Origin: Methylomusa anaerophila
Lineage (GTDB): Bacteria; Bacillota; Negativicutes; Sporomusales; Sporomusaceae
DNA: 32,000 nt
Assembly: GCF_003966895.1 (NCBI RefSeq)
Contig: NZ_AP018449.1
Coordinates: 37,424-69,423, forward strand
Direction: 5' to 3'
The first letter of the stretch is position 1. Each line of letters opens with the position of its first letter. The translations under genes were made by a program, and so were the position numbers. Of the stretch, positions 1,817-30,430 are shown piece by piece. The notes beneath the pieces are model-generated. The model searched no databases and was not told the origin of the DNA. It saw nothing but the letters and a program-made list of their open reading frames with translations.

Positions 1817-1879
1817 TAAAAATGCCATGAAAAATAAACATACCCGCATACTGGGACGGGTTGTTCACCTTCATGGCAT
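1817..1879 (-). terminator. Terminator-like (attenuator) hairpin inside the 5' leader of the receptor gene
   Basis: Minus strand: 5' arm ATGCCATGAA (1879..1870) and 3' arm TTCATGGCAT (1831..1822) form a perfect 10 bp stem. It encloses an inner hairpin ACCCGT/GCGGGT and is followed by TTTTAT (1821..1817). It sits about 130 nt upstream of the start codon, so it acts as an attenuator rather than an operon-end terminator. Confidence 0.5.
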
Positions 1880-11965: not shown

Positions 11966-12011
11966 AATGCCTACCCCATTCCCTCGTGGCTGCCTGTGCT
12001 TACTGTTCCTG

Positions 12012-14543: not shown

Positions 14544-15142
14544 TTAGAATTTATAGCTGTACTCCAGGAAGGCGCTGCGGGTCGGCGCCAGGTAGTAGGA
14601 CCAGTATCTGCGGTTAAATAAATTATCAATGCTTAAAGAAACGGTAGAATGTTTATCCGGCAAATAAGATATTTTCATATCCACCAGGAAGACCGGATCA
14701 TACGAACCGTATTGGCCGGTTTTCACTCCGTCCTCTTTTGTGTCGCTGATTCTGCGTCCGCTGATGCTGCCCAGCCACTTTTGGCTTTTGTAGTCGAACC
14801 CGACGTTAAGCATGCATTTGGGAATATCGTCCATCTGTCGGCCGATAACGGCCGCCGGATTTTTGCTTTCGGTTATTCGGGCGTCGGTGTACGTATAATT
14901 AATAAAGCTGGTCCAATTTTTGCTCAATTGCTTATTTAATCCGATTTCAAAGCCTTTCATTACCGCTTTGTCCGCATTGCTCTGCCTGGATTCCGTAGTT
15001 ATGCCGGGTATGGTTCCGATATTGGGAACATAGCCGTCGGTCACGGCATATTTCATGGTGGTAATGGCATCCTCTAACTGCGTATAGAAATAGGACACGT
15101 TGAATAAGGTTTTGGAATCCAAACGGTAATCCAGGTTCAAAT
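14544..15142 (-). pseudogene. TonB-dependent receptor, C-terminal fragment (last ~199 codons) cut off by the transposon
   Basis: The ORF-track 203-aa product ends in the canonical barrel terminus ...AFLEYSYKF. It has no signal peptide or plug. The frame joins exactly to 18227..19739 once the element and one TSD copy are removed. Confidence 0.9.
15137..15142. repeat. Target-site duplication, left copy (TCAAAT)
   Basis: The identical hexamer TCAAAT directly abuts both element termini (15137..15142 and 18227..18232). The flanking bases differ, so the duplication is exactly 6 bp. Confidence 0.85.
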
Positions 15143-15167
15143 TGTTAGCTTGCAAAAAATCTAATCC
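15143..15167 (+). repeat. Left terminal inverted repeat
   Basis: TGTTAGCTTGCAAAAAATCTAATCC compared with the reverse complement of the right end, TGTTAATTTGCAAAATAAATCATCC: 19 of 25 positions match. Confidence 0.8.
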
Positions 15168-15238: not shown

Positions 15239-15274
15239 ATATTGCACATTACAACAGCAACGGGAGCGGATTTT

Positions 15275-15853
15275 TTGCAGATTCTGATTACAGTTAAAGA
15301 AACTATTACGCAATACATTACCCGATTTCAGGCATTAGAAATTGTTCGACCGGAAAAGTGTCCCGTCTGCGGAGCCGTTCACTCGATTCATCGGCATGGC
15401 AGCTATTGGCGCAATATCTTGAATGAGCAATGGGAAAAACGGATTCCGGTAGCCAGGTTCTACTGCAAAACGTGCAAACTGACGATATCGATGCTGCCTT
15501 CCTTTGCACTGCCCTATTTCCAGTATTCACTGGAGTTCATTGTGACCGCGTTGCAACAAATCTTTCTTGCCAAGGCAACCACGTCAAGAATTTGTTCAGC
15601 CCTACTGCGCTTTTATCGAAGACGATTCCATGGCAACTTGCTATTTCTGGAGATGTTTTTCCGCGACCAGGGCTGGCCTGAAGTCACTCCGCAAGATGTA
15701 AAAGAAAAAGCCACAAAAATGGTTTGTATGTTAACTGTCCCCACAGCCGAAACCCTTTCGCAAAGGTTTCATCAACACTACAAACATACTTTTATGGCAC
15801 ATTCATTGTACCATAGGTTCTATCTGAGCGTAAACCAGTGCGTTCCCACATAA
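15275..15853 (+). CDS. Zinc-ribbon accessory protein of the transposon (CxxC...CxxC; DUF6431-like)
   Basis: Contains CPVCGAVHSIHRHGSYWRN...RFYCKTCKLTISMLPSFALPYFQYS. Start taken as TTG 15275 (GGAGCGGA upstream); the ORF track gives TTG 15242. The family name comes from memory of the motif pattern, not from a search. Confidence 0.65.
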   Translation: MQILITVKETITQYITRFQALEIVRPEKCPVCGAVHSIHRHGSYWRNILNEQWEKRIPVARFYCKTCKLTISMLPSFALPYFQYSLEFIVTALQQIFLAKATTSRICSALLRFYRRRFHGNLLFLEMFFRDQGWPEVTPQDVKEKATKMVCMLTVPTAETLSQRFHQHYKHTFMAHSLYHRFYLSVNQCVPT

Positions 15854-15944
15854 CTTTTCGCTGGCGAAGGTCAGAAAGTTGCGGTATGATGGCTTTTGTA
15901 CAAGGTTAGCCGGCTAGCCTCCCCATTTACCGGAGGTGTGTTCA

Positions 15945-17228
15945 TTGACAAATGAAGATCGCGAGCAAGTCGCTCTATTTCGTTATGGGCTGATCGCCCC
16001 GCTTTTGAATGATCAAGTCGATTCTAAACAAGACTACCTGTCCGAAATCTGCGCCAAGTTCCATGAGGTCCCCTATTATGGCCGCAAAGAATTTGCACCG
16101 AAAACTCTGGAGGGCTGGCTCCGCGATTATCGCCGCGGCGGATTTGTGGCCTTAAAACCCAAAGGCCGTTCTGACCGCGGGAGAAGCCGGGTGATCTCAC
16201 CAGAGCTAAAGGAGCAGATTATTGCTTCGCGTCAGAAAAACAGGGAGCTTTCTGTTGTGCTGTTTTATGAAAAGCTGGTTAAGAACACGGTGTTGGCTCC
16301 TGACAAAGTGTCTTACCACAGCGTTTACCGGCTCTTAAAATCACAACAGCTTTTATGGCCGGAGGAGAAAGCATTAAAGGAACGCAAACGCTTTAGTTAT
16401 GATAAGGTGAATATTCTGTGGCAGGGCGATATGTCCATTGGCCCTTACCTTACGATTGGCGGCAAGAAGCTCAAAACTCATTTGTTCGCCTTTATTGACG
16501 ACTGCTCCCGGCTGGTTCCTTTTGCTCAGTTCTCGTTTACGGAGAAGTTTAGTCCCATGAAAGCGGTGCTCAAAGAGTCCATTCTCCGCCGGGGTGTCCC
16601 GAAGATGATTTATGTTGACAACGGCAAGGTGTATCATGCCAGGGAGCTTCATTTAGCTTGCGCCGCTCTTGGTATTACGCTGACTCATACTCAGCCTTAT
16701 GATCCGCAGAGCAAAGGAAAAATTGAGCGTTTTTTCGGCACAGTGCGCCGTCGTTTTTACCCGCTCCTTGCCAACAATATGCCTAAATCCCTGGATGATT
16801 TAAATGCTCAGTTTTGGAAGTGGCTGGAGAGCGATTACAATCGCAAACCGCATTCCGCACTGGACATGTCTCCTTTTGACTTATTTTTGTCACAGCCGTC
16901 TTCTGTCCGATTATATACGGATCCCTATGCTTTGGAACGACTCTTTTTTAAGCGGGAATACCGTAAGGTGAAGCACGACGCAACGATCACGCTGTCAAAC
17001 CGTTTGTTTGAAGTCCCGGCCAAGCTAGTCGGGCAACGGATTGAAGTACGCTATGATCCGGAGTCGCCCGAGCAAGTCTATATCTATGACAATGACATCC
17101 AGGTAGGTGTGGCTGCGCCGGTATCGTTTCGGGACAACTCCCAAGTCAAACGGGAACGCAGGGACTTTCCCAAAGAGACTGCGATTTCTTTTGGCAGTTT
17201 ACTGGCCTGCCAAAAGGAGGATGTGTGA
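15945..17228 (+). CDS. DDE transposase (rve integrase core plus Mu-transposase-like C-terminal domain)
   Basis: Catalytic triad contexts are LWQGDMS, IYVDNGKVY and SKGKIERFF. N-terminal HTH-like REQVALFRYGLIAPLL and a C-terminal beta-barrel region ATITLSNRLFEVPAKLVGQRIEVRYDP. Start TTG 15945 lies 8 nt after GGAGG; the ORF-track GTG 15936 overlaps the RBS. Confidence 0.9.
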   Translation: MTNEDREQVALFRYGLIAPLLNDQVDSKQDYLSEICAKFHEVPYYGRKEFAPKTLEGWLRDYRRGGFVALKPKGRSDRGRSRVISPELKEQIIASRQKNRELSVVLFYEKLVKNTVLAPDKVSYHSVYRLLKSQQLLWPEEKALKERKRFSYDKVNILWQGDMSIGPYLTIGGKKLKTHLFAFIDDCSRLVPFAQFSFTEKFSPMKAVLKESILRRGVPKMIYVDNGKVYHARELHLACAALGITLTHTQPYDPQSKGKIERFFGTVRRRFYPLLANNMPKSLDDLNAQFWKWLESDYNRKPHSALDMSPFDLFLSQPSSVRLYTDPYALERLFFKREYRKVKHDATITLSNRLFEVPAKLVGQRIEVRYDPESPEQVYIYDNDIQVGVAAPVSFRDNSQVKRERRDFPKETAISFGSLLACQKEDV

Positions 17229-18028
17229 TGTTCCAATCCTTTTATTCTCTCTCGTCGGTGCCCTTTCGCAAAGAGCTTGAAACCAAACACTTCTTTTCCT
17301 CGCAAGGATTCTCCGAAGGCACGGCCAGACTGGAATATTTAAAGTCGACTCGCGGTATGGGCGTTGTGATTGGCGAGGCTGGCGCAGGAAAAACTTCGCT
17401 GATGAGAAATTTCGCTGCCTCGCTCAATCCTTCGTTGTTTAAGGCCATCTACTTTCCCTTGTCTACTGTCACCGTATCTGACTTTTACAGGGGGTTGACC
17501 GTAGGGTTAGGACAGGAGCCGAAGTTTCGCAAGGTCGACCTGTTTGCTCAAATCCAGCAGGCCACGCTTCATCTGTTTCACAACCAAAAGATGACACCGG
17601 TTTTCATTCTGGATGAGATGCAAATGGTCTCCAATCAGTTTTTAAACGACATTAGCTTGTTGTTCAATTTTGCGATGGATTCTGCCAATCCGTTTATACT
17701 GATTATGGTTGGCCTTCCTCATTTTATGGAACGGTTACGGTTAAGTCACAATCAGCCCCTGGCCCAACGGGTGGTGATGCGTTATCAGATGAATTCCCTT
17801 TCGAAAGATGAGGTCAGGCACTACATCCTGCATCAGCTTAAGTTGGCTGGCGCTCTTCATGATATTTTTTCTCCCCAGGCCATTGAGGCCATTACTTCAC
17901 GTTCTCGTGGGTTTCCTCGCTTGATTAACAATCTGGCAACCAATTGCTTGCTTTACGGCTGTGCCAAAAAACTTGAATTAATTGATGACGAGGCCGTTTT
18001 CGCAGTCGCTTCGGAATCCGGATTGTGA
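17228..18028 (+). CDS. AAA+ ATPase transposition helper (ExeA/TniB/TnsC-like)
   Basis: Walker A GEAGAGKTS and Walker B PVFILDEMQ. The ATG overlaps the transposase stop (GTGTGATG) and GGAGG lies 7 nt upstream. Confidence 0.88.
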   Translation: MFQSFYSLSSVPFRKELETKHFFSSQGFSEGTARLEYLKSTRGMGVVIGEAGAGKTSLMRNFAASLNPSLFKAIYFPLSTVTVSDFYRGLTVGLGQEPKFRKVDLFAQIQQATLHLFHNQKMTPVFILDEMQMVSNQFLNDISLLFNFAMDSANPFILIMVGLPHFMERLRLSHNQPLAQRVVMRYQMNSLSKDEVRHYILHQLKLAGALHDIFSPQAIEAITSRSRGFPRLINNLATNCLLYGCAKKLELIDDEAVFAVASESGL

Positions 18029-18075: not shown

Positions 18076-18201
18076 TGCGGATGAATGAATGGGCAAACTC
18101 ACGTTGTATCAATTTGCAAAACCGCTTTTTGCTCTGCTGCATGATTCCTCTTGGTTTGTAAATTAGACCAAATTTCCGGCTCTTTTATTCTGCTATATCA
18201 C

Positions 18202-18226
18202 GGATGATTTATTTTGCAAATTAACA
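18202..18226 (+). repeat. Right terminal inverted repeat
   Basis: GGATGATTTATTTTGCAAATTAACA, the reverse complement partner of 15143..15167 (19/25). Confidence 0.8.
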
Positions 18227-18232
18227 TCAAAT
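18227..18232. repeat. Target-site duplication, right copy (TCAAAT)
   Basis: See the left copy at 15137..15142. Confidence 0.85.
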
Positions 18233-19739
18233 CATAGGAAGTGCTTTTTTCCGGCTTCAAATTGATATTGGACGTCGTTATATCCGTCGTAGTGGTTTGA
18301 GAAGACCGATACAACTCATAGAATGAGGGGGTGCGAAACCCCTGGCCGACATTAAATTTCCAGGTCGCTTTCTCGTTGGCCTTATACACCATACCGATTC
18401 TGCCGCTGAAATTGCTTTCCTCCCTGTCGCCATACTGGCTGAAAACCGGAGGGGAGGCGGAAGTTCGCCGGAAGCTGTTCCAACCGCCGGTGGTTTCCCA
18501 TCTAACATATCTGCCGCCGATAAAGGTGGTGAATTTATCATTGAATTTGTGCTCGTCCTGGAAATAGAAGGAATCACTCCTGGTTTTGCCGCCGGATTTC
18601 CGGTCTATCTGGTCTTCAGGCTTAACGAAACTCCAGGTGTGTTCCGGATAAAATCTCCTCAATTCCCGTTCATCATACGCCGTCCCTTGTTCGCTGCGCA
18701 GGGAATACCCCAGGGTAAGCAAATTCTTCCGGTCCACTTGCCAGTTCACATGCATATCCCCGTCAGTGGTTTCAAAATAATTTAACTGATGCATGAGATT
18801 TTGCGTCTGGACGGTGCCGCTCCAACCGCTGTAATACCAGTTGTCGGTCTTTTTCTCGCCCCAGGTGATTTGATAATCCACCTTGTCATTTACTTTTCTC
18901 TGATAATCCAGATTAAGGCCTTTGCTCACTTTGTCGGCCTGATCCGTTCCCAGTTCGTATTTATACGAACTATTGCCCCTGTAGCTGTTGACAGACAGCT
19001 TACTATCCTTATCCCAGCGGTAGATCAGTTTGCCGCTGTAATGCTCCTGCCCGCCGCTTTGGTGACCGCGATAATTGGTTTTATCGTCGGGATAAGCGGT
19101 GATAAAACCATCGGAATCAATTTTGGAGTAATCAAAATAATAATCGAGTTTTCCCACCGAGCCGCTGTGGCCGAAGGTCACTTTTCCCGTCCCCTGCGTC
19201 CCGCTCCCCAGCTTCACCACCGTTTCATTGGCGGCCTTGCTTTTGGTAATGATGTTGATGACTCCCGCCTGGGCGCCGGAGCCGAATAATGATGATCCCG
19301 GTCCTTTCACTACTTCGATTCGCTCAATATTCTCTATCGGAATTTGGCTCCAGGTAATCTGACCGTTATAACCGTCATTTTGACTTTGACCATCCACCAG
19401 AACCAAAATGCCCTTAAATTTAAACCCCCGCATAATGACGGTGGGCTCGCTGCTGCTTAGCCCGGTATTGCGCTTGATCATAATGCCGCTGATCCCTTTT
19501 AAGGCATCATCCAAATTTTGCACATTCTTTTTTTCCAGGTCTTCTTTGGTAATTACCTCAACCACCACCGGCACATCTTTTATTTTCTTCTCTGTCCTGG
19601 TTGCCGTAACCACCACTTGATCCAGCTGAAAACCGGGAGCATCCTCCTCTACTTCTTCACCGTAAGCCACCCCCAGGGAAGATAATATTATTCCTGTCGT
19701 CAGAGCTAATACCCAGCCTTTTTTATGGGACGTTTTCAC
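18227..19739 (-). pseudogene. TonB-dependent receptor, N-terminal fragment (504 native codons) truncated by the transposon
   Basis: GTG 19739 has GGAGGAG 7 nt upstream. Signal peptide, then DQVVVTATRTEKKIKDVPVVVEVITKEDLEKKNV and IEVVKGPGSSLFGSGAQAGVINIITK. The ORF-track product ends ...NLKPEKSTSYDL followed by 9 element-encoded residues (MLICKINHP) and a stop inside the right IR (18198). Confidence 0.9.
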
Positions 19740-19773: not shown

Positions 19774-19837
19774 TTACTACCCTTACTACCTTACTGCACT
19801 GCATTACTGCATCACTGTACTACCTTACTGCTTTACT
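19774..19837. repeat. Cluster of six TTACT pentamers including a 14-nt direct repeat
   Basis: TTACT occurs at 19774, 19783, 19791, 19804, 19825 and 19833. TACTACCTTACTGC occurs at 19784..19797 and 19818..19831. The cluster spans the CobN stop codon and the 85-bp gap before the receptor start. Confidence 0.7.
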
Positions 19838-22800
19838 CCGGCATGTATTTTTTGTCTGACGCCCTGCATTTTTTGCGCCCACTCTTTTACATCATCCATG
19901 TTCAGCATATCGACGGACCCGCCCTGGAATTCGCCGTCGATATCGCCGATGCGTTCTTCCAGCCAGCCTTCGATCTCCATATAGGTCTCCTGCAGTTCTT
20001 GCAGCACCTGGGGATCGGCCTGCCATAAACCCCGCTTCTCGGCTTCCAGCATGCGGCGGCTGATGTCCTCCAGCGCCCAGGGGTTGTTCTCTTCGAAGAA
20101 TTGCCTGTTTTCCTCGTTCAGCACAAAGGTTCGGACAATGTCGTCAAAGATCCAGTCATCCACTTCCTGGGTGGTTGCCTCCCAGCCATAGACCCGGCCA
20201 ACGCGTTTGGCTATATCACCGGCGCCTTTGTAGCCATGCCGTTTCATGCCTTCAATCCATTTCGGGTTAAGCACCTTGGTGCGCACTACCCGGCGAATCT
20301 CGTCAGCCAAATCAACAACCTGAGGCAATTGCGGGTCGCGGGTGTCGCCATAGTACGTTTTGGCCTTCCGGCCGGATATCACATTGGCCGCCAGCGTCAT
20401 GCCGCCCTGATAGCTGTAGTAGCAGCAACAGCCCAACAGGTCATGCTCATCGGTCGGATTGTTGCGGAAGGTGACGTTCAGCGTCTGGAGTTGGTTGACC
20501 AGTTGATCGGCGGCCTCGGCGCCCTGACTGTCCATCCCTTCGCCATAGGCAAAGCTGTTCCAGTACACATACACCTCGGCCAGGTCCTTTTCATCCTTCC
20601 AGGCGCTGGCATAGACCGCCAGATTAACACCTGAACCATACGTACCCGGCCGTGTGCCGAAAATCCGGAAGGTGGCCTGCCGCCAAAGCTCGGCTTCAGC
20701 GGCTGCGGTTTTTTCCAGTTTTAGCTTCTCCATGTTTTCCAGCGTATGCTTTTTGACATAATTGTGCTCGCTTGGCTCGTCAAGAGCGGCCAGCTCTTTT
20801 ACCGCCCGGTCAATGATTTCCACAATCATCGGGAAGCAATCGCGCACCAGGCCGCTGATATGTAAGGTTACGTCAATACGGGGGCGGTTTAGTTCCGCCA
20901 GTGGTATGATCCGGTAACCTTTAATGCGCCCATTTGGCTCCCATTCCGGTTCCACACCAAGCAAGTAAAGGATCTGAGAGGTTTGCTCCCCGTTCGTCCA
21001 CATCATATCCGTGCAGGAAAGGACAATGCCGCAGTTTTCCGGCAGGCAGCCTTCCTCGCTTTCGTACTTCTCCAGCATGCGGGCGGCCAAAACCCGCCCC
21101 ACCCGCCAGGCGGCCTTGGTCGGTATGGTAAAGGGGTCCATGCTGTAGAAATTCCGTCCGGTAGGCAGTACATCAGGACGGCCCCGGGTCGGACAGCCGG
21201 AAGGACCGCTGGCGATATACCCGCCTTCCAGGCCATGCAGTAAACTGTCCATTTCCCGGCTGCAGCCGGCGATTTTTTCTCTGAGGCTGTCAATTATTTG
21301 TTTAAACCCGGCAAATACCTCTAAAACTCCGGCATTCCTAACACGCTCGCCCAGCAGTTCACAGGCAACTTCTTCGCCGCTCAGTGTCTCCCCGTTCAGG
21401 AACAATTCCACCGCTTTTTGGGACAACAGATAGGCTTCCTGCAACAGTTCCCCATTGCTGACGGCATAGCCTGGCGGATATTCGCCGGGATTGGCTTTGA
21501 GCTCCAGATAATTCAGTCCTTGTAATGCCAGGATAACGCCGCGCAGCGACTGGGTTTCATCGCCGGCATATTTCAACATGGAGGCAATGAATTCTACCAA
21601 TTCATCGCCTGCCGGCGCCTGCCCGAAAATATGCATGCCGTCGGCAATGGAAGTATCGCGGATACGGGTCAGCGCCTCATGGGCTTTTTTTACAACCGCC
21701 GGGAAATTCTCGGCCATGTATTTGGGGTCGTGCAGCGTTGCCGGCGGAATGTGCATCTCCTGGTGCAGGTTGGCTTTTTCTATCGCCTCGACAATCAAGT
21801 GTTCCAGGGAATGAGCCCGCGCCGGGTCATTTCCCCGGGCCGTTCCATACTCCCCTAACAGCTGCTCAAGTTCCTGGAGTTCATCATAAGTGCCGCTGTG
21901 GGTCATAACCGGCAGCAGATAATCAATAAGCACCGCTGCCGCCCGCCGTTTGGCTATCGTCCCTTCCGAAGGATTGTCCACGCTGTACAGATATAGATGC
22001 GGCATTTCGCCCAGAGTCAGGTCCGGATAACATTCCCGGGACAACGCCAGGGATTTTCCCGGCAGGAACTCCAGGTTGCCATGTGTGCCGACACTGATTA
22101 ACAGGTCGGCGCCCCAAACCTTTTGCCAATACCAGTAGCTGGCGACATATTGATGAGTAGGCGGGCACTCCGGGTCATGGAGGATTTTACACACCTGACC
22201 GTCACATTTTGGTCCGTAGCAGCCCCGTTTGGGCTGCACAACAACCAGTGCATTGCCGTATTCCACCCCGGTCAGCACCAGTTTGTCCTGATAGACCATG
22301 GATTGTCCGGGAGGTTCGCCCCAGGTTTCAGTCATTTTTTGGCGGACATTTTCCGGAAACTGCCGCCACCATTCCCGGTACTGTTCGGTCGGGAAAAGGG
22401 TTAGCGCCCCTTTTTTCTCCACAATCTCCTCCACCGGCGTCCAGCGGAAGTCCGATATGGCTTTTCTGCCCATTATGGTTTCAATGAGTTCTTTGCCTGT
22501 GGCCGGCATATTGTCAATGCTGTAGCCCTGCTCCTTCATAACCGCCATAATCCGGGCCACGCTTTCCAGGGAATCCAGATGCGAGGCCCCGCCGACACTA
22601 AGCTCGGTACCGGCGCAGGGATTGTTGTTGAACAGGAAGACAACCCGCCGGTCCTGGGGCAGCTTGCTTCTGAGCGCCACCCAGCGTGTCAGCCGGGCGG
22701 CGGCTTTCTCAATTCTTTCGGCGAGCGGAACAAATTTCTCCACCGTGATGCCGGTAGTCTCGTCCCGGGGAGTCTCATAGCTGGCCAGGATAATCGGTTC

Positions 22801-23751
22801 AATCATGCCGTAAAACTCAGGCATGGCCACATACCAGATGGCCGATGACCCCAGACCATGGGGGTTTTTCTCCCATTCCTCCCGGCTGATGTGATAAGGC
22901 AGGAAACCTTGGATGACGGGAACATCCAGCTTTTGAAACAGCGCAACCACCTGGTTGGTCTCCCGGTCGTCCCAGTCCTCGGTCCCTTCGGTGAAGCGGG
23001 ACGCCTGGATATTAAAGAACAAATCGATGACCGGTTGGCCGTCGCGAAAAAAGTAGTGATTAACGATTTGTTCATTAGTCCAGCTGTCAGAGGTGACCTT
23101 GTCATGGGCCTGATAAGAGAATACCGGCAGCAGATCCATCCCCTTCCTGCCAAAAGTTTCGATCAGGGCGTCAATGACTTCCACATTGCGGTTCATCCAT
23201 AATTGCCGGTTAAATAACAAGCCTATTTTCTTGTTATCCGCAGACCAGCGTCCTTCACGCCGCGCCCAGGGAATATACTCCTCCATGGTGCTGAAACACT
23301 TAAGTCCGCGGCCGTAGATCCCCTGCCACAACTGTGCCCGGGGTTGCCCGTAATCCACATTGATGCCGGCCAGTTCCTTGGCAACGTAGGAAAACAGTCC
23401 AACCATGTTTTCCACACCTTCCAGGTCCATGTACTGCTGGATCCGGGCCACATGCTCGCCGGCAATGCTTGACAGCAGGAAATAGGCCGGTTCCTTGCCC
23501 CAGCAAGCCACCTGCTTTTTTCCCCGCAGTGCTTCAATCACAGGTACGAGACTATGCCAGTGCTCATTGTCCTGCGGCTGCAGAAGAATGATATCGGCCT
23601 CCTCTTCCATATAGCGCACAAACCGGCTGCGTTTGCCCTCATTCTCCAAATCCTTGACGGCGCAAACGTGAAGATCCAAAAAGCCCAGCAGTTTTTTGGC
23701 CTCCACAATATTGAGCAGCCTGGTTCCCCACGTCAGAAACGCGATTCTCAT
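19825..23751 (-). CDS. cobN: CobN-family chelatase large subunit, intact (1308 aa)
   Basis: Full-length CobN/BchH-family architecture with conserved blocks NNNPCAGTELSVGGASHLDSLESV, GTHGNLEFLPGK, PTGRNFYSMDP and WIEGMKRHGYKGAGD. Start at ATG 23751 (AGGAGGG 8 nt upstream) rather than the ORF-track 23769. Confidence 0.93.
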   Translation of the reverse strand: MRIAFLTWGTRLLNIVEAKKLLGFLDLHVCAVKDLENEGKRSRFVRYMEEEADIILLQPQDNEHWHSLVPVIEALRGKKQVACWGKEPAYFLLSSIAGEHVARIQQYMDLEGVENMVGLFSYVAKELAGINVDYGQPRAQLWQGIYGRGLKCFSTMEEYIPWARREGRWSADNKKIGLLFNRQLWMNRNVEVIDALIETFGRKGMDLLPVFSYQAHDKVTSDSWTNEQIVNHYFFRDGQPVIDLFFNIQASRFTEGTEDWDDRETNQVVALFQKLDVPVIQGFLPYHISREEWEKNPHGLGSSAIWYVAMPEFYGMIEPIILASYETPRDETTGITVEKFVPLAERIEKAAARLTRWVALRSKLPQDRRVVFLFNNNPCAGTELSVGGASHLDSLESVARIMAVMKEQGYSIDNMPATGKELIETIMGRKAISDFRWTPVEEIVEKKGALTLFPTEQYREWWRQFPENVRQKMTETWGEPPGQSMVYQDKLVLTGVEYGNALVVVQPKRGCYGPKCDGQVCKILHDPECPPTHQYVASYWYWQKVWGADLLISVGTHGNLEFLPGKSLALSRECYPDLTLGEMPHLYLYSVDNPSEGTIAKRRAAAVLIDYLLPVMTHSGTYDELQELEQLLGEYGTARGNDPARAHSLEHLIVEAIEKANLHQEMHIPPATLHDPKYMAENFPAVVKKAHEALTRIRDTSIADGMHIFGQAPAGDELVEFIASMLKYAGDETQSLRGVILALQGLNYLELKANPGEYPPGYAVSNGELLQEAYLLSQKAVELFLNGETLSGEEVACELLGERVRNAGVLEVFAGFKQIIDSLREKIAGCSREMDSLLHGLEGGYIASGPSGCPTRGRPDVLPTGRNFYSMDPFTIPTKAAWRVGRVLAARMLEKYESEEGCLPENCGIVLSCTDMMWTNGEQTSQILYLLGVEPEWEPNGRIKGYRIIPLAELNRPRIDVTLHISGLVRDCFPMIVEIIDRAVKELAALDEPSEHNYVKKHTLENMEKLKLEKTAAAEAELWRQATFRIFGTRPGTYGSGVNLAVYASAWKDEKDLAEVYVYWNSFAYGEGMDSQGAEAADQLVNQLQTLNVTFRNNPTDEHDLLGCCCYYSYQGGMTLAANVISGRKAKTYYGDTRDPQLPQVVDLADEIRRVVRTKVLNPKWIEGMKRHGYKGAGDIAKRVGRVYGWEATTQEVDDWIFDDIVRTFVLNEENRQFFEENNPWALEDISRRMLEAEKRGLWQADPQVLQELQETYMEIEGWLEERIGDIDGEFQGGSVDMLNMDDVKEWAQKMQGVRQKIHAGVKQ

Positions 23752-23865
23752 TGTTGTTACCCTCCTCATCTATTCATAAGTCAGGCACCGTCCTTCAGAA
23801 TGCTTCACGACGGCTGTTCTCTCATTCTGAATCCCGGCTCCTGGCTTTCGGCCCCTTATGTTTTT

Positions 23866-25551
23866 TCACTGCAAAATGTGCAACCGGTGTTCCCCCGTCA
23901 GCGTCCCGTCTTCCCGGCGCAGCGGCGACTCGCTGCCGGCGATCGTCGTGCCGTCCGCGGCAATATTGCCGCAGATCGCAACCCCGCCGGTAGGATAAAA
24001 CCATACCAGCTTATCCGGACCGGCAGCCTGCAGATCTAGGCAGTAAAGTCCGGAACGCTCCTTTTTCCGGGCCACATAATTATGATATATGCCGGCGACC
24101 ATATAGCGGCTGTCGGCGGAAAAACGCGCTTTTCCCAAACCGCCCTCCGTTTGCCACTTCCAGAGAATATTGCCTGAGCGATCATAAGCAAATAGGGTGG
24201 TGGCGTCAGGATGAGTGAAAGATGGCGCTAAAGCAAAGCTCTTATCCGCCATATAAGTTGCCGTTGTCATAAAATAGACCGTACCGTCGTCCCTGACCCG
24301 CGCCACATTGCCGGACGCATACACCGGGACGCCGCTGACCTGGATAATCTTGCTGACCTGATACAACCATACCGGCTTGATGTTGCCGTTCTTTTTGTTA
24401 AGATCAACCTCCGACAAATCAAATAACATGCCCCGGTTGTCGCCGATGAACACGGCTGCATACTTCCCGTTGGGCGACATATTAATGCCTTCATTAATTC
24501 CGACCCATTTGAAGGTAGGCCGGGCCGGCCGCAATGTATAAGCAGCAGCCAGTTCTCCCGTTTTCCCGTTTATGAGCCTGATCACGCCGTCCGGATACTG
24601 CTGGGTGTCAATCGAACCCGGATTAGCATGAATGTAGTTGGCAAAAAGCACTTTCTGCCCATCGGCGGAAACTGAGATCCTGGATATAGTTGTATCCATC
24701 ACCCCGGCTGCCGGATACCGCCAAAGGGTATTGCCGGTAGAGGTGTCAAACGCCATCATAATGCTCTGGGTCGGGTTGGTTACAACCACTTTTTCACCGG
24801 CTTTTTCCACCACCCGCTGCACATACTCGCTGCCGGCCACAATCATGTTGCCGCTGACGGCGAGATTTCTCACCTTGGGCCGGTTGCTGGGATTCCGGTT
24901 TGTCCCTTGTCCAATGATAGGAGAAAAAGAGTACTTCCATAATAAATTTCCCGATAACGTTTCAAAAGCGTAGAGATTGGCGTCGGCGCTGGCCTCGCCT
25001 ATGAACAGTGTCTTACCGTCGTCGGCAAAGACCGCACTGATGGGCGTACCGTTGGGAACGCCGTAATCCCAGAGCTTCTTGCCGGTCCGGTTGTAAACAT
25101 ACACCCGGTTATCATAAGAGGCCAGCGCAATATATTTCCCGTCCGGCGCTACGGCTGCGTCGTCAAATACTGTCGAACCCGATTCATTAATGGTCGGAAA
25201 CTCCTCAAACTCATCGAGCCTGGCCACACCGCCGACCAATATTCCGGGCCGGGCCGGCGCCGCATCCGACCAGGATTTCCCCGCCATTTTCACTTCATAT
25301 CTGGCGCCGGTCCGCCAATTCCCGCCAAAGAGGACGGTACGCTCCCCCAATACTTTTCCTTTATCAGGCTGCACATCGCCATTAATACTCAATTGAATGT
25401 CCGCCGCCGCTACTGTCTTGTCGGCAGTTACCGCCAGGCCGTTTTTGGTGAAGACGGCCTGCAGCCCGCCCGGCAAACCTTGGTCCTTGTCACTGCAGCC
25501 TGCCGTTACTAACATCAGCGCCAATAGCAAGCCGCATATCCATAACCGCAT
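23866..25551 (-). CDS. Lipoprotein with PQQ-like beta-propeller repeats, paralogue 2
   Basis: Lipobox LVTAGC. Repeats NRVYVYNRTGKKLWDY and ANLYAFETLSGNLLWKY. Ends GEHRLHILQ like paralogue 1. AGGAGGAGG lies 5 nt upstream of ATG 25551. Confidence 0.88.
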   Translation of the reverse strand: MRLWICGLLLALMLVTAGCSDKDQGLPGGLQAVFTKNGLAVTADKTVAAADIQLSINGDVQPDKGKVLGERTVLFGGNWRTGARYEVKMAGKSWSDAAPARPGILVGGVARLDEFEEFPTINESGSTVFDDAAVAPDGKYIALASYDNRVYVYNRTGKKLWDYGVPNGTPISAVFADDGKTLFIGEASADANLYAFETLSGNLLWKYSFSPIIGQGTNRNPSNRPKVRNLAVSGNMIVAGSEYVQRVVEKAGEKVVVTNPTQSIMMAFDTSTGNTLWRYPAAGVMDTTISRISVSADGQKVLFANYIHANPGSIDTQQYPDGVIRLINGKTGELAAAYTLRPARPTFKWVGINEGINMSPNGKYAAVFIGDNRGMLFDLSEVDLNKKNGNIKPVWLYQVSKIIQVSGVPVYASGNVARVRDDGTVYFMTTATYMADKSFALAPSFTHPDATTLFAYDRSGNILWKWQTEGGLGKARFSADSRYMVAGIYHNYVARKKERSGLYCLDLQAAGPDKLVWFYPTGGVAICGNIAADGTTIAGSESPLRREDGTLTGEHRLHILQ

Positions 25552-25600: not shown

Positions 25601-27487
25601 CTAATCCATCGCCGTCCGTTTCAAAGAATCTCCCAACCGGCAGCCTATAGCCGCCCCGATGGCACAGTAGACAAATCCGGCAGCCAGCACCGTCCAAATG
25701 TACCAGTCGGCGTAATACAGCCGGTACAACATCATGTACGCCATCATGCTCATATAGGAGGTAATGATGTCCACCACCCCGCAGACCACAGCCAGAATGA
25801 CAATGCTGAGACGGCTCCGGCAGCCTCTCCCTCTGGTAACGCCGGTAAAGAAGAGACCGGCTTCCAGAAAAACCGCCAAGGCCGCGTACAGCAAAATGTT
25901 CATCGGCGAGAAATGTCCAAAAATAAACCCGTTGAGAATAAACCTGACAACGATCATCAGGCTGACGGCTCCCGGCCTGGGCAGTACAACAGCCAAGGCT
26001 ACCATCAGCGCATACAGGACCGTTTGGCTGAAAAATCCGGTAAACAAAAAACTGAACGGACCAAAAATTACGTGAGCAATATCCATGAGTACCGTTGCCG
26101 GCAGATTAACGGTAACAAAGGTGACCGTTCCGAATAGAGCGACAATAACCATTTCCTTGCTGGACACCCGCCTGAGCGCCGACTCCTGCCGCCAAACAAA
26201 CCAACTGACGCCCAGCACCGCCACCAGCGTCATAAACAGTGTCGCATACAGGGGCTTGTTGTCATGAACGGTCAACGTCACCGGTTGTTTCGACGTGCTT
26301 ACCACCTGACTGACGCCGAATATCCTGGTTTCCGTCTGCAATTCATATTTGCCGGCGACGGCCCTATTTTCATCAAGATAAATGGGAAGAATCACCTGGT
26401 TGCTGGAATGGGCGGGTACGGCCGCTATACCGTAACTATAGCCCAGTCCGCCGTTTTTGTTTTGCGGCGCGGTAAAAGCCGGCGACATCTTGCCCGTAAC
26501 GATATCCGTCATTTTGGCCGTGACCAAGGCTAAAACCTGTTGATCACCGTCGTTGCTGATTCTTATGGCGGCAAAAGTAAGCGGATCTTCATCAAAACGC
26601 CGGTCTTCGCGTTCCCCTGTAAAAAACTGCAACAAACGGCTGGGCGGCTGATAGGCCAGAGCACCCGTCTGAACTTTCGGCTCCAGGCGGCCGGAAGCAT
26701 CCACCGGCAAGTCGACTTTGGCAACCTTGACATTATTGCTGATGTCGGCGAGGGAAGAGATTTGGATTACCGCCTGTTTGTCCCATTCCCGCTGTTCCCG
26801 GCCATTATCCAAATGCAAGCGGGCGGTTATCGTTGCCTTCCGCCCCGCTTCACCGGCTTTTACTTGGATCTGTTCATTCCATATCTCGTTTTCCGCCGTC
26901 AGACTGGCCGGTCCGAGCACATGGTTTACGCCATCGCGCCGTTCCAGTCTCATGACGGGAGGAACGGCTGCCACTTCAAGCTCAGGCGGAATGGAAACAT
27001 CCAAGATCCCGCCAACCTTTTGATCAGCATGATTGGTGATCAGAAGGTTAATGGCAAAAGTACTGCCATTGGTAACCAGACCCACATTTTCCTCGCTGTT
27101 TAGCCCATAGGGAGCTTGCAGAAAAAATGATATTGTCGCCGGCGGCTTGTCCGGGCTCCTGGCAGACAAGCGGATCTTGCCGCCGTCCCGCAGGCAAATC
27201 TCAAACTCATATTCATGCCCCGGCCTCCAGGGAATAAACACTGGGAGGACTTTATGACCGCCTGGTCCCGTATCGCTGGCGATAACCGTTTCCCCCGGCT
27301 TATCCCTGACGCGGATTTGCCTTATTTGCTGCTCCCGGTCAAATGTAATTTCGACTCCCTGCCGGGTAAACTCAATCTGTCCCCCCGGCGCTTCCTGCCC
27401 GGCTCCCAACAGCCGCCAGGCGCCATAGACCAGACCAATGACCAGCAATACGAGGCCAAATTTCTGCAACTTGTTATAGTGGGGCAA
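25601..27487 (-). CDS. 628-aa membrane protein: N-terminal anchor, ~400-aa extracytoplasmic region, C-terminal ~7-TM domain
   Basis: The only possible in-frame start is TTG 27487 (a TAA lies 18 nt upstream in frame). Hydrophobic segments are FGLVLLVIGLVYGAW at the N-terminus and six to seven from residue ~415 to the end. No family is recognised with certainty. Confidence 0.75.
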   Translation of the reverse strand: MPHYNKLQKFGLVLLVIGLVYGAWRLLGAGQEAPGGQIEFTRQGVEITFDREQQIRQIRVRDKPGETVIASDTGPGGHKVLPVFIPWRPGHEYEFEICLRDGGKIRLSARSPDKPPATISFFLQAPYGLNSEENVGLVTNGSTFAINLLITNHADQKVGGILDVSIPPELEVAAVPPVMRLERRDGVNHVLGPASLTAENEIWNEQIQVKAGEAGRKATITARLHLDNGREQREWDKQAVIQISSLADISNNVKVAKVDLPVDASGRLEPKVQTGALAYQPPSRLLQFFTGEREDRRFDEDPLTFAAIRISNDGDQQVLALVTAKMTDIVTGKMSPAFTAPQNKNGGLGYSYGIAAVPAHSSNQVILPIYLDENRAVAGKYELQTETRIFGVSQVVSTSKQPVTLTVHDNKPLYATLFMTLVAVLGVSWFVWRQESALRRVSSKEMVIVALFGTVTFVTVNLPATVLMDIAHVIFGPFSFLFTGFFSQTVLYALMVALAVVLPRPGAVSLMIVVRFILNGFIFGHFSPMNILLYAALAVFLEAGLFFTGVTRGRGCRSRLSIVILAVVCGVVDIITSYMSMMAYMMLYRLYYADWYIWTVLAAGFVYCAIGAAIGCRLGDSLKRTAMD

Positions 27488-27515
27488 ATGCCAACACCAT
27501 CCTTACTAACGATTG

Positions 27516-27576
27516 AAAAAAACCATGAAGAATTGCCGGACGCTGCGCCGCCAGCACCGGTCAATAACCTTCATGG
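27516..27576 (-). terminator. Terminator-like/attenuator hairpin upstream of the 628-aa gene
   Basis: Minus strand: CCATGAAG (27576..27569) pairs with CTTCATGG (27530..27523). Nested inside are CCGG/CCGG and GCTG/CAGC pairs. It is followed by TTTTTTT (27522..27516) and ends 28 nt before the TTG start. Confidence 0.55.
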
Positions 27577-27644
27577 CTACTGTTTTATAAATTCATGTTA
27601 ACTTTGCTGCTCTTAAACAGACAAATATATGGTATTCCACATTC

Positions 27645-27690: not shown

Positions 27691-27732
27691 ATTGTTAATT
27701 GTTAATTGTTAATTGTTAATTGTTAATTGTTA
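27691..27732. repeat. Perfect tandem heptamer repeat (ATTGTTA) x6
   Basis: Six exact copies that end one base before the stop codon (27733..27735) of the ABC-2 permease. Confidence 0.95.
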
Positions 27733-28476
27733 TCAATCGCGTACATGCAATAAGGTCCAAATCCCCGCCCCGGTCAGAATGACCGCATAGGCGCCCAGGA
27801 CGGCCACCGACGGCCAGGGGGTATGGCCGCCTGCTCCGAGGATGCGCAAGGCATAGGTTGCATGGGTCAGCGGCAAAATTTCAATGATCCACCGCAACAC
27901 AAGGGGAAATTTGTCAACGGTAAAAAAGGTTGCACATAGAAACGACATAGGAAGGAGAAAATAAGTGCTGAAATTCCCCATATCCTCATGGGAATCAATC
28001 ACCATAGCAGCCACAACACCCATGGCGGCAAATAAAGCGCATATCAGCATAAGCACCAATAAAAAACCGGCATGAATTGCAATCGTGGCGCCAAAAAAAT
28101 GCGCCAGCAGGAAGATAACCGCGCAGGATATCATCCCCCGCAAGGTGCCTGCCAATATCTTGCCAATCACAAAGGCTGCCGGACCAACCGGAGCAACCAG
28201 GTATTCCTCAAAGGATTTATGATACAGCCGCATCATATTGAGCGGTGAGGCTACAGAGTTAAAGCTGATATTCATGGCATTCAGGGCCATAATTCCCGGA
28301 ACGATAAAATTAAGATAGCTCCCGCCGTTCATCTGGATGCCGCGGCCAAGTCCCCAGCCGAAAGCTACCAGGTACAATACAGGGGTCACCATCCGCGACA
28401 GGATAAACTTGGTCATGCGGCGGTGCAGCACCAGCCAATCCCGCCAGAATACCGTGTAAATATCGTTGAAGAACAT
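27733..28476 (-). CDS. ABC-2 type transporter permease
   Basis: 247 aa with 6 predicted helices. Paralogue of 13725..14516. The start overlaps the ATPase stop (TAATG at 28474..28478). Confidence 0.9.
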   Translation of the reverse strand: MFFNDIYTVFWRDWLVLHRRMTKFILSRMVTPVLYLVAFGWGLGRGIQMNGGSYLNFIVPGIMALNAMNISFNSVASPLNMMRLYHKSFEEYLVAPVGPAAFVIGKILAGTLRGMISCAVIFLLAHFFGATIAIHAGFLLVLMLICALFAAMGVVAAMVIDSHEDMGNFSTYFLLPMSFLCATFFTVDKFPLVLRWIIEILPLTHATYALRILGAGGHTPWPSVAVLGAYAVILTGAGIWTLLHVRD

Positions 28477-29315
28477 TATCCTGCCACCTTTCGCCCGGTC
28501 AACTCGACAAAAACATCTTCCAGGTTGGACCGGCGTATGACTGTGTCTGCTGTTAAGTTGCCGGCAAAAGCGCCGGCATCGTTCCGGTGGGAGAAGAACC
28601 GGTATTCGGTTACGCCTGTTTCATTCCATTCCACCACATATTCCCCCAGACGCCGGCACAGCTCCACCGGGCTGTCGAGGGCAATCAGCCTGCCTTTGTC
28701 AAGGATGGCCACCCGCTGGCAGAGGTTTTCCGCTTCTTCGATATAATGAGTGGTCAGGAGCACCGTAATGCCATCCCCGTTCAACCGGCGCACCAAATCC
28801 CACAAGCGCCGCCGCACCTGCGGGTCCAAACCGACGGTAGGCTCATCCAGAAACAATATCCGGGGACGGTGCAGGAGGGCTCTGGCAATCATCAGGCGGC
28901 GCTTCATGCCGCCGGAAAATTTTTGCACCATGTCATGGCTCCTGTCAGTCAGTTCCACATACTCCAGCAGTTCATCAATGCGCTTGCGCCGGTCATCACG
29001 CGGCATATGGTGCAAACGGCCATGCAGTTCCAGGTTTTCCCGCGCCGTCAAATCAATGTCCAGATTCAAATGCTGCGGCACCACCCCAATGGTGTTCTTT
29101 ATCTCCAAATCATTGTCCGGCAGTTTCCAGCCATTGATGGTGACCGTTCCGGCAGTCGGCTTGGTCAACATGGTCAAGATGCGGATAGTCGTCGTTTTGC
29201 CCGCACCGTTCGGCCCCAACAGGCCAAACGTTTCCCCTTGTTCAATGTGCAGGCTGAGTTTGTCGACTACGGTGCGCTCCTCAAATTTCTTAACCAGTCC
29301 GTCGATCACGATCAT
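28476..29315 (-). CDS. ABC transporter ATP-binding protein
   Basis: Walker A GPNGAGKTT, signature FSGGMKRR, Walker B ILFLDEPTVGLD. Start ATG 29315 (MIVIDGLVKKF; GGGAGAAG upstream) is preferred over the ORF-track 29333. Confidence 0.9.
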   Translation of the reverse strand: MIVIDGLVKKFEERTVVDKLSLHIEQGETFGLLGPNGAGKTTTIRILTMLTKPTAGTVTINGWKLPDNDLEIKNTIGVVPQHLNLDIDLTARENLELHGRLHHMPRDDRRKRIDELLEYVELTDRSHDMVQKFSGGMKRRLMIARALLHRPRILFLDEPTVGLDPQVRRRLWDLVRRLNGDGITVLLTTHYIEEAENLCQRVAILDKGRLIALDSPVELCRRLGEYVVEWNETGVTEYRFFSHRNDAGAFAGNLTADTVIRRSNLEDVFVELTGRKVAG

Positions 29316-29329
29316 ATACGCTTCTCCCA

Positions 29330-30430
29330 TCATTTATGCCCATGAGCATGCGAATGCGTATGCGTATGTTGGTGGGAATGATCGTGACTATGGGCATGCT
29401 GATGTCCCAGAATTTCCTGTAGTTTTTTCTGCTCCGAACCGATTTCCTGGAAGGGTTTTTTTCGCATACGGTGCATAAGGGCCAACTCGACGACTTCAGA
29501 AACGTCCGAACGTTCAACTTTATCCCGGCCGTTAAGTGCGGCCAAAGCCTTGGCGGCCTTTAGCATCACCAGGTCGGCGCGATGTCCGTCAACTCCCATT
29601 TGAATGGCGATATCGGCAATATTGAACAGCACATCGTCATCATGGCTAACAGCGGCCAACAAGTTTTGCGCCGCTGCTATCTTGTCCCGCAGCTTGCTTT
29701 GTTCTTCTTCCCACTGCGCCGCGAATGCTTCCTGGTTCTCTTCAAAGGCCGTCCGGCGTTTAATGACATCCACGCGTTTGGCGGTGTCGGCAATGCCCTC
29801 AATGGTTACGCACAGCCCGAAGCGGTCCAGGAGCTGCGGTCTCAGCTCGCCTTCTTCCGGGTTCATGGTGCCGACAAGGATAAACTGGGCCGGATGGGAG
29901 AAAGACACGCCTTCCCGTTCGACGGTATTTACCCCCATGGCGGCGGCATCGAGAAGTACGTCAACAATATGATCATCCAGGAGATTGACCTCATCCACAT
30001 AGAGAATTCCCCGGTTGGCCTCAGCCAACACTCCTGGTTCGAATTTTTTCTCGCCGTGTTTAATAGCGTGTTCAATGTCAAGAGTGCCGACAACCCGGTC
30101 TTCAGTCGCCGATACCGGCAAGTTCACCACTTTCATCGGGCGTTTGGACCGCGGCAGTTTTTCGCCTTTTTCAACGCGCTCATGGCACTGCGGACAATAC
30201 ATCAACGGCTGATCGGGATCACAGTGGTAAGGGCAGTCGGCCACCACATCAATTTCCGGCAGCAATTCGGCCAAGGCCCGCACTGCCGTTGATTTGGCGG
30301 TTCCCTTTTCCCCCCGGATCAGGATACCGGACAGGCGCGGATTGATTACATTCAGCATCAAACCTTTTTTCATGCTTTCCTGGCCGACAATGGCTGCAAA
30401 CGGATAGTTCATCGGTTTATGATTATGCAT
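29330..30430 (-). CDS. chlI: ChlI/BchI-like AAA+ chelatase ATPase subunit with C-terminal (HX)11H tail
   Basis: FAAIVGQESMKKGLMLNVINPRLSGILIRGEKGTAKST (Walker A), ILYVDEVNLLDDH (Walker B), FILVGTMNPEEGELRPQLLDRFGL. Ends HQHAHSHDHSHQHTHTHSHAHGHK. AAGAGGAGAG lies 6 nt upstream of ATG 30430. Confidence 0.92.
   Translation of the reverse strand: MHNHKPMNYPFAAIVGQESMKKGLMLNVINPRLSGILIRGEKGTAKSTAVRALAELLPEIDVVADCPYHCDPDQPLMYCPQCHERVEKGEKLPRSKRPMKVVNLPVSATEDRVVGTLDIEHAIKHGEKKFEPGVLAEANRGILYVDEVNLLDDHIVDVLLDAAAMGVNTVEREGVSFSHPAQFILVGTMNPEEGELRPQLLDRFGLCVTIEGIADTAKRVDVIKRRTAFEENQEAFAAQWEEEQSKLRDKIAAAQNLLAAVSHDDDVLFNIADIAIQMGVDGHRADLVMLKAAKALAALNGRDKVERSDVSEVVELALMHRMRKKPFQEIGSEQKKLQEILGHQHAHSHDHSHQHTHTHSHAHGHK

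Follow-up and report, generated by a model that had tools for sequence, protein, structure and literature searches.

The stretch of DNA considered here, which we call the window, comprises 32,000 nucleotides of the Methylomusa anaerophila genome (contig NZ_AP018449.1, positions 37,424 to 69,423). On its minus strand, at 25601..27487, lies an uninterrupted open reading frame (ORF) that encodes a 628-residue protein, hereafter the target, and runs from a TTG codon at 27487 to a stop codon at 25601-25603, with an AAGGA ribosome-binding site 12 nt ahead of the TTG. A second in-frame TTG at 27469, six codons downstream, would give 622 amino acids (aa) and is a possible start, since the public cluster representative has 622 aa. 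An earlier note, made from the sequence alone, had described here a 628-aa protein with an anchor helix, an exported region and C-terminal helices, flanked by an ABC-2 exporter and a propeller lipoprotein and preceded by its own terminator-like hairpin. The ORF, the hydropathy profile and the AlphaFold2 (AF2) model agree with that description: the gene lies on the minus strand, every sequence string quoted in the note is present in the target, the permease ends at 27733, the propeller gene starts at 25551, and a strong hairpin with a U7 tail is found at 27515-27577. According to our analysis, the target is very probably the substrate-capture (S) subunit of an energy-coupling factor (ECF) type ATP-binding cassette (ABC) importer, and it belongs to an unnamed protein family, labeled S* here, that combines an S core with exported domains. 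Throughout, function is read from fold, homology and gene context.

The layout of the target was derived from hydropathy and from a whole-protein AF2 model with a predicted local distance difference test (pLDDT) score of 76.8. An N-terminal anchor helix (27398..27463, minus strand; residues 9-30, or 6-28 as read from hydropathy and the model), which includes FGLVLLVIGLVYGAW at residues 10-24 and whose N-terminus is predicted to be cytoplasmic, is followed by a beta-rich region made up of three beta-sandwich domains (residues 36-407). A linker transmembrane helix (26168..26257, minus strand; residues 411-440) is predicted to return the chain to the cytoplasm, and it superposes on the extra N-terminal helix of NikM and CbiM. 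The six-helix S-component core occupies 25604..26167 on the minus strand (residues 441-628, with helices spanning 443-626); RRVSSKEMVIVALFGTVTFVTVNL corresponds to residues 439-462, and the C-terminal end reads GCRLGDSLKRTAMD. The loops 432-446 and 546-562 contain four lysine or arginine residues each, and the C-terminal tail is also basic. Because the basic residues cluster in these places, residues 31-410 would face the periplasm, and the model fits a topology in which the core is N-in/C-in and residues 31-410 lie outside the cytoplasmic membrane. Judging by its relatives (Sporomusa, Veillonellales, Selenomonadales), the host is a diderm Negativicute. The residues of the core conserved throughout the family are R589 and W595, which form part of the LYRLYYADWYI motif, E542, and the GPF and PRPG motifs.

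Neither the target nor 11 close relatives matched any Pfam or NCBIfam family; in agreement with the note, which had assigned no named family, neither collection has a model for S*, and the two names provided by the sources are "hypothetical protein". Searching the PDB by sequence, with the single sequence and with a 149-sequence profile, gave only chance immunoglobulin (Ig)-like matches and none to the membrane domain. With the whole protein, Foldseek returned only generic Ig-domain arrays (integrins, macroglobulins, transglutaminases), and therefore the C-terminal domain, residues 405-628, was folded separately with 148 relatives as alignment. The resulting AF2 model has a pLDDT of 94.9 and a predicted template modeling score (pTM) of 0.90. 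In an exhaustive VIA-align comparison of this model with 48,161 PDB chains, ranks 1 to 15 were all occupied by S components or S-component-type transporters (Z 15.4 to 8.7, 154-188 aligned residues), and the matches beneath them were partial, covering at most 77 residues. The best match was YkoE (5edl; Z 15.4, root-mean-square deviation 2.9, 173 residues), and the others included the S chain of the ECF complex 4huq (4huq_S; Z 13.6), RibU (5kbw; Z 13.1), the S chain of the ECF complex 4hzu (Z 12.3), NikM (4m5c; Z 11.0), FolT, BioY, ThiT, CbiM and PanT (Z 10.7 to 9.5), and BtuM (8ovv; Z 8.7). The search with the whole-protein model returned the same S-component matches for residues 440-628, and the top two Foldseek matches of the domain model were 5edl and then TmRibU. 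With the 15 best structural matches all of the S type, the domain does not belong to an unrelated well-known family.

The relationship with YkoE is also detectable between sequence profiles. The comparison set consisted of 18 true members of PF09819, the YkoE family, encoded in genomes of the host's phylum; hhalign aligned the 149-sequence S* profile with them at a probability of 96.6% and an E-value of 6.1e-10 over 173 columns. The PF09819 hidden Markov model (HMM) produced weak, sub-threshold matches in 7 of 82 distant S* members (best E 2.2e-4), and a protein-atlas search led to a 364-aa archaeal cluster with PF09819 on 28% of its members. The S* core is thus an S component remotely related to YkoE, one that escapes the current HMMs. 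Previous work tied the small-residue face of helix 1, of the AxxxA type, to EcfT binding, and used AxxxA to separate the S components that dock on ECF modules from MreD and sensor kinases, whose residues at these positions are bulky (PMC11109136). Across the S* family, position 450 is A/S/G in 98% of the members, position 453 is G/A/S in 99% and position 454 is A/T/S in 93%, with the exact AxxxA present in about 40% of them at most.

The architecture of the family consists of an anchor helix, which in some members is a lipoprotein signal, one to three periplasmic beta-sandwich domains, an extra helix and the YkoE-like six-helix S core. A lipobox-like motif is found at the N-terminus of about 40 of 134 full-length relatives, and the N-terminal helix of the target has none. 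In the target, about 380 residues are exported. Its first ectodomain, D1 (27158..27382, minus strand; residues 36-110), is a small beta-sandwich confined to the long S* forms and missing from the short members of about 545-560 aa. D1 remotely resembles the first module after the lipobox (FT+xG ... WxPGxxY) of both propeller lipoproteins, located at about 25280-25480 and about 13400-13620 on the minus strand (BLASTP E 0.003; hhalign 83%, E 8.6e-6); from this similarity the modules appear homologous, which hints at a shared docking partner. D2 (26756..27133, minus strand; residues 119-244) is an Ig-like beta-sandwich of the pilin, macroglobulin-MG or cohesin type, and D3 (26267..26731, minus strand; residues 253-407) is a membrane-proximal beta-sandwich. 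D3 is the most conserved exported part; it is present in every length class, including relatives of about 380 aa, and carries the motifs PVDxxGxxD, NDGD and HKNxGxGYSYG. For D2 and D3 the structural matches, with Z of 11-12.7, are to generic Ig-like modules (those of the pilin CnaB type, macroglobulin MG, cohesin and the Ig-like domains of GH2), and they provide no functional lead.

An exhaustive profile search retrieved at least 430 S* representatives at 50% identity (E up to 1e-3), 212 of them below 1e-30, and a scan of about 186,000 species genomes, one per species, yielded 267 confirmed S* loci in Negativicutes, Desulfobacterota, Nitrospirota, Poribacteria, Omnitrophota and others. For 80 of these loci the flanking genes were typed by BLAST with the proteins of the window and its neighborhood; since the queries come from this genome only, divergent partners may be missed, and the ORFs of the loci were called mechanically. 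We considered a locus well flanked if at least 4 kb were available on both sides, a definition that retains 55 loci, 33 of them outside Poribacteria (Negativicutes, Desulfobacterota, Nitrospirota, Omnitrophota, Planctomycetota and one actinomycete metagenome-assembled genome, MAG). Within these 33, an adjacent EcfT is found in 32, an adjacent fused EcfAA' in 29 and an adjacent propeller in 31; a TonB receptor is present in 24, and CobN lies within 10 kb in 19. The propeller lipoprotein adjoins S* in 52 of all 55. There are also two natural fusions of the S domain with the double ATPase, P0126 (1204 aa) and one in locus L019 (813 aa, Anaerospora hongkongensis). In the latter, at L019:8958-12361, a separate 320-aa ectodomain ORF stops where the 813-aa S-core-plus-AA' ORF starts, an arrangement that could be a real split or a frameshift. 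In Poribacteria, the propeller is the only neighbor of the set, and each of the two genomes checked encodes a single EcfT elsewhere; an S* gene located apart from its module is, therefore, not unusual. The identification of the target as an S component is based on the agreement of the fold, the remote YkoE-family homology and the EcfAA'/EcfT gene context, which together support the resemblance proposed in the note.

The genome holds three S* copies. The note had found no paralogue in the first module, which is correct for the window, as both paralogues lie outside it. Copy 2 (P0010) is 52% identical to the target and is encoded 9 kb upstream on the same strand; starting from it, the gene order is P0010, a fused double ATPase, a CbiQ-family T subunit, ChlD, ChlI, DrrA, ABC-2, the terminator-leader, the target, the propeller, CobN and the receptor. 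The EcfT, fused EcfAA' and P0010 genes are thus directly upstream of ChlD, beyond the window, and the fused ATPase scores above the curated cut-offs of both ECF_ATPase_1 and ECF_ATPase_2. Six EcfT genes were found in the genome, none of them within the window. Copy 3 is 34% identical to the target and has 545 aa; its operon, preceded by a cobalamin riboswitch, contains S*, EcfAA', EcfT, the propeller, a BtuB-like receptor and a radical-SAM gene. Radical-SAM/SPASM genes were also observed between ChlI and CobN in Nitrospirota and relatives (L038, L039, L040, L049, L059 and L061); the one in the third locus of this genome follows the receptor (L005:17308-18369).

In a FastTree phylogeny of the 400 shared C-terminal residues (local support, no bootstrap), the target falls in a clade of five members with copy 2, L006, L007 and L008, with 100% local support. 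All five are linked to CobN and ChlI/ChlD, which, together with the 19 loci mentioned above, bears out a linkage to CobN/ChlID loci in other genomes. The order in the other four members is propeller-S*-AA'-T-CobN-receptor-ChlD, with a TPR protein replacing the propeller in copy 2, and the target is the only member of the clade separated from a module.

The remaining genes around the target are all on the minus strand. The propeller lipoprotein (23866..25551) has the lipobox LVTAGC and is PQQ_2/WD40-like. CobN (19825..23769; 1314 aa) is above the NCBIfam cobaltochelatase CobN cut-off, and because it has neither a signal peptide nor a membrane anchor, we consider it cytoplasmic. Its AAA+/VWA partners are ChlI (29330-30430) and ChlD, which extends from 30519 to the window end at 32000; the full ChlD ORF reaches window position 32525, encodes 668 aa and is above the cut-off of TIGR02442, "putative cobaltochelatase". 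The 483-aa GTG-start version of this ORF within the window is an artefact of the window end. Between ChlI and the target lie a DrrA-type ABC ATPase (28476-29333) and the ABC-2 permease (27733-28476). A pair of this exporter type accompanies the ECF module in many S* loci; the idea that it substitutes for the ECF module of the target was discarded, as the pair co-occurs with AA'T in many loci. The TonB-dependent receptor of the target's module is broken by an insertion element at 15242-18028 into an N-terminal part at 18198..19739 and a C-terminal fragment at 14544-15155.

The 245-nt gap between the ABC-2 permease and the target contains the leader hairpin (27515..27577, minus strand), formed by a 5' arm GCC-AUGAA-GG and a 3' arm UUCAUGG, to which the U7 tail is attached; 28 nt separate it from the start codon. 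The stop codon of ABC-2 is followed immediately, at 27691-27732 on the minus strand, by TAACAAT repeated six times in exact tandem and then by repeats of the GGATTTCTTT type. These TAACAAT/GGATTTCTTT repeats overlap the sole promoter-like hexamers ahead of the target and may constitute an operator or promoter array. A search with the GCC-AUGAA-GG motif pattern gave five sites in the genome and none in the reversed control. The site at 2.35 Mb is short and may be due to chance; the other four precede a TonB-type uptake gene or operon. Besides the one before the target, the copies are located before the last TonB receptor of the window (1825-1876, minus strand), before the exbB operon that holds copy 2 (L004:13291-13339, minus strand), with a group II intron in between, and before a TonB receptor and a binding protein that are divergent from a CbiM-Q-O operon (G000:C1:140146-140191).

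The motif is also found ahead of propeller, exbB or receptor genes in L006, L007, L008, L009, L017 and L065, and before orthologous operons in further Negativicutes genomes and in Desulfobacterota MAGs. In the clade of the target and the other CobN-linked clades, this terminator hairpin, with a 3' arm UUCAUGG(C) and a U run, takes the place of a riboswitch known to Rfam. Downstream of the Negativicutes sites we found exbB, propeller, S* and TonB-receptor genes and no recognizable nik genes. When the whole 213-nt leader was compared with the genome by DNA similarity, it matched only itself, the hairpin motif alone being what recurs, and the ACGAA variant of the hairpin is absent from this genome. 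Rfam recognized no known RNA family and no cobalamin or NiCo riboswitch in the target leader, in the region upstream of exbB or in seven CobN-linked loci. The GCC-AUGAA-GG terminator leader probably gates the unit formed by the target, the propeller, CobN and the receptor.

Two other elements accompany the exbB operon that contains P0010 and the ECF module, both outside the window. The group II intron, on the opposite strand (L004 about 10750-13183, plus strand, equivalent to G000:C1 about 76.7-79.2 kb), sits between the leader hairpin and exbB and comprises a reverse transcriptase/maturase ORF (11321-13126) and the Rfam Intron_gpII element (13109-13183). A NikABCDE/Opp-type ABC importer (L004:13602-18765, minus strand) immediately precedes the leader hairpin and the exbB operon and shares their strand; all of its NCBIfam scores are under the nickel equivalog cut-offs.

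Other parts of the family have a different kind of leader. Searches with Rfam and with a covariance model built for this work detected cobalamin riboswitches upstream of S*, on the same strand, in 37 of the 55 loci, among them copy 3, the short-form clade of Negativicutes and nearly all the Poribacteria loci; some of the riboswitch-headed operons include CobN (L024, L028, L030, L052 and L055). In L013, L016, L019 and L072 the riboswitches are unusually dense, at four to five per 20 kb, and each one lies on the same strand as the S* operon. This suggests that Sporomusa-type genomes contain rows of uptake units, each gated by B12 on its own.

Taken together, these data suggest the following route of uptake. 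The ligand would cross the outer membrane through the co-encoded TonB-dependent receptor and would then be passed, probably via the propeller lipoprotein and the ectodomains, into the pocket of the S core. The core would dock on EcfT by the small-residue face of helix 1 and then topple, driven by ATP hydrolysis in the fused EcfAA'. The target most likely uses the EcfAA'-EcfT pair encoded four genes upstream, in common with P0010, and the CobN-ChlI-ChlD chelatase may act on the ligand or its metal in the cytoplasm.

The compound carried across the inner membrane is probably cobalt- or B12-related. If the target is an ECF S component, our tentative first choice, slightly short of an even chance, is a corrinoid-type or other metal-macrocycle chelate; cobalt or nickel, as an ion or a small complex, we consider rather unlikely, and what remains falls to other substrates. 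The control by B12 riboswitches in the family fits the uptake of corrinoids and of cobalt alike, the adjoining chelatase fits the delivery of a metal as well as a macrocyclic substrate, and a bulky ligand would suit the TonB receptor, the propeller and the ectodomains. Ion binding in the manner of CbiM/NikM is disfavored by the N-terminus of the core, which is covalently blocked.

Several observations weigh against this interpretation. At an E-value of 1 the PF09819 HMM matches neither the target nor its 11 close relatives, and at 10 it matches nothing in the whole genome. Helix 1 of the target reads A450-L-F-G453-T454, that is, AxxxT and not AxxxA; at the level of sequence, then, the small face is kept in the target and the literal motif is not. 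The S-component fold also occurs in proteins that are not transporters, such as MreD (PMC12625996). The target gene has no EcfAA'/EcfT next to it and is cut off from the genes upstream by a terminator hairpin, so that its sharing of the upstream module is something we infer. The roles given to the ectodomains and the propeller are conjecture, because ECF transporters by definition do without extracytoplasmic binding proteins. As for the substrate, the clade of the target has no B12 riboswitch and the other CobN-linked clades likewise lack an element known to Rfam; a complete corrinoid would need no chelatase, and the evidence does not separate cobalt, nickel and a chelate.

Some of these points acquire another meaning if the target is a solitary transporter of the S-component type that, like BtuM, moves its ligand over the inner membrane without EcfAA'T. 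The missing adjacent AA'/T and the position of the gene behind its own terminator and leader would then be explained, BtuM (8ovv) is among the structural matches, and the Poribacteria copies are likewise without an adjacent module. However, AA'-T directly follows the S* gene in each of the target's four nearest relatives, one of them being the paralogue at a distance of 9 kb, the target retains the small-residue docking face, an AA'T module lies four genes upstream, and both Poribacteria genomes checked encode EcfT elsewhere, so that we regard a solitary transporter as very unlikely. Slightly less probable still is that the fold serves no transport at all and the protein is an MreD- or 5TMR-like scaffold or receptor that organizes the propeller and the TonB receptor, or a ligand sensor. 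S-component folds have indeed been recruited as scaffolds and sensors (PMC12625996, PMC11109136), and the possession of D1 in common with the propeller lipoproteins suggests protein-protein contacts. Against it, the helix-1 motif of small residues kept by S* is missing from MreD and the sensor kinases, S* adjoins ECF ATPases and is sometimes fused to them, and the protein has no cytoplasmic signaling domain.

The least probable of the alternatives is that the target is a drifting, redundant duplicate, left by a P0010-type duplication and an operon rearrangement in which the module and then the function were lost. The gene order departs from the canonical propeller-S*-AA'-T-CobN of L006-L008, the TonB receptor of the module is interrupted by a transposon, and no ortholog closer than about 53% identity was found. 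Yet the ORF is intact and of full length, the leader hairpin, which is conserved, and the ribosome-binding site are retained, and the branch of the target is of ordinary length (0.33, compared with 0.24-0.34 in its clade). The target also keeps every invariant or near-invariant residue of the family, on positions that were defined on its own sequence. Because the conserved residues are all kept and the branch is not long, we infer that the target is a working second S subunit that uses the upstream EcfAA'-EcfT module.

Beyond the reading of the target as an ECF S subunit, a wider proposal can be made, which we consider clearly unlikely. It would see in these loci a trans-envelope salvage line of diderm anaerobes, where the TonB receptor, the propeller and the ectodomains relay a metal-macrocycle into the ECF importer, CobN-ChlI-ChlD acts as an ATP-driven de-chelatase that harvests cobalt or nickel, as HmuS does with haem iron, the DrrA/ABC-2 pair expels the emptied ring, and a new GCC-AYGAA-GG terminator-type RNA switch controls the system. 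If true, such a line would break the "no binding protein" rule of ECF transporters.

ECF transporters, which have been studied mostly in monoderm bacteria, are defined as needing no extracytoplasmic substrate-binding protein. What we describe here as new is a YkoE-lineage S component of the ECF type to which periplasmic domains are fused; a propeller protein accompanies it, and it is linked with TonB uptake and with CobN chelatases. The S* family provides an S subunit with fused periplasmic domains, a near-obligatory propeller partner and wiring to TonB-dependent receptors. Our literature searches turned up neither an S component with an exported domain nor the S* gene set, and periplasmic or extracellular fusions go unmentioned in a 2024 survey of the S-component fold. 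The family also places the CobN-ChlI/ChlD chelatases of strict anaerobes in a concrete context that can be tested. Because these organisms make B12 by the early-cobalt route, the role of the chelatase has been puzzling; the cobN-exbBD-tonB cluster of Geobacter lovleyi, for example, was described as having an unknown biochemical role (PMC3403914). With a name for S*, B12-riboswitch regulons would be better annotated in the Negativicutes of the gut (Phascolarctobacterium) and in the symbionts of sponges (Poribacteria).

The known systems closest to this one include the trans-envelope tetrapyrrole systems of Bacteroidota. Like the target's locus, the hmu/btuS clusters encode a TonB-dependent receptor and an ExbB/D-TonB set together with a protein of the CobN family, HmuS or BtuS (PMC12583661, PMC6460266), and in BtuB-BtuG the B12 receptor has a beta-propeller lipoprotein, BtuG, as its partner (PMC10404256, PMC6143338). 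Neither of them has an ECF module. HmuS and BtuS are membrane-anchored and periplasmic (PMC12583661, PMC6460266), unlike the CobN of this locus, which carries no export signal; for that reason, a HmuS-like periplasmic de-chelatase was rejected as a direct analogy. In the passages of those reports that we consulted, no ChlI/ChlD partners are described for HmuS or BtuS, while the CobN of this locus has both. A BtuG-like identity of the propeller was likewise set aside, as a PDB sequence search at E up to 1 gave no BtuG match, and the likeness is one of analogy only.

The vitamin B12 importers ECF-CbrT (6fnp) and BtuM (8ovv) share the S-component fold with the target (Z 6.5 and 8.7, respectively). 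B12 importers usually lie behind cobalamin riboswitches, as does much of the S* family, including copy 3. In contrast to the target, CbrT and BtuM have neither an ectodomain nor a propeller partner; they show no sequence similarity to it, their structural match is weaker than those of YkoE, RibU and FolT, and the clade of the target is without a riboswitch.

CbiMNQO and NikMNQO, with their NikK/NikL accessory variants, resemble the target's system as group I ECF systems tied to the supply of cobalt or nickel, and a chelatase is close by in both cases. CbiM and NikM also have a seven-helix layout, and their additional helix can be superposed on that of the target (4m5c, Z 11.0; 5x3x, Z 10.1; from model residue 12). 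CbiM and NikM bind the metal with free N-terminal residues, as seen in the published structures, whereas the equivalent end of the target is continuous with the linker helix and fused to 400 residues. The CbiM HMM finds no match in the target, and the TonB receptor and propeller of S* point to a bulkier ligand.

The greatest similarity is to YkoE, of the group I system YkoEDC (PF09819, "ABC_cobalt"; 5edl). YkoE-type proteins have about 190-230 aa and no exported domain, and the target differs from them by the addition of an N-terminal anchor helix, three beta-sandwich domains and a seventh helix; the context of S*, with its TonB receptor, propeller and CobN, also differs in having no thiamine genes. 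In YkoEDC the fused ATPase is YkoD, and the operons of S* members likewise encode a fused double ATPase, along with a dedicated T subunit. YkoE is both the best structural match of the target and the only family with which profile homology is detectable.

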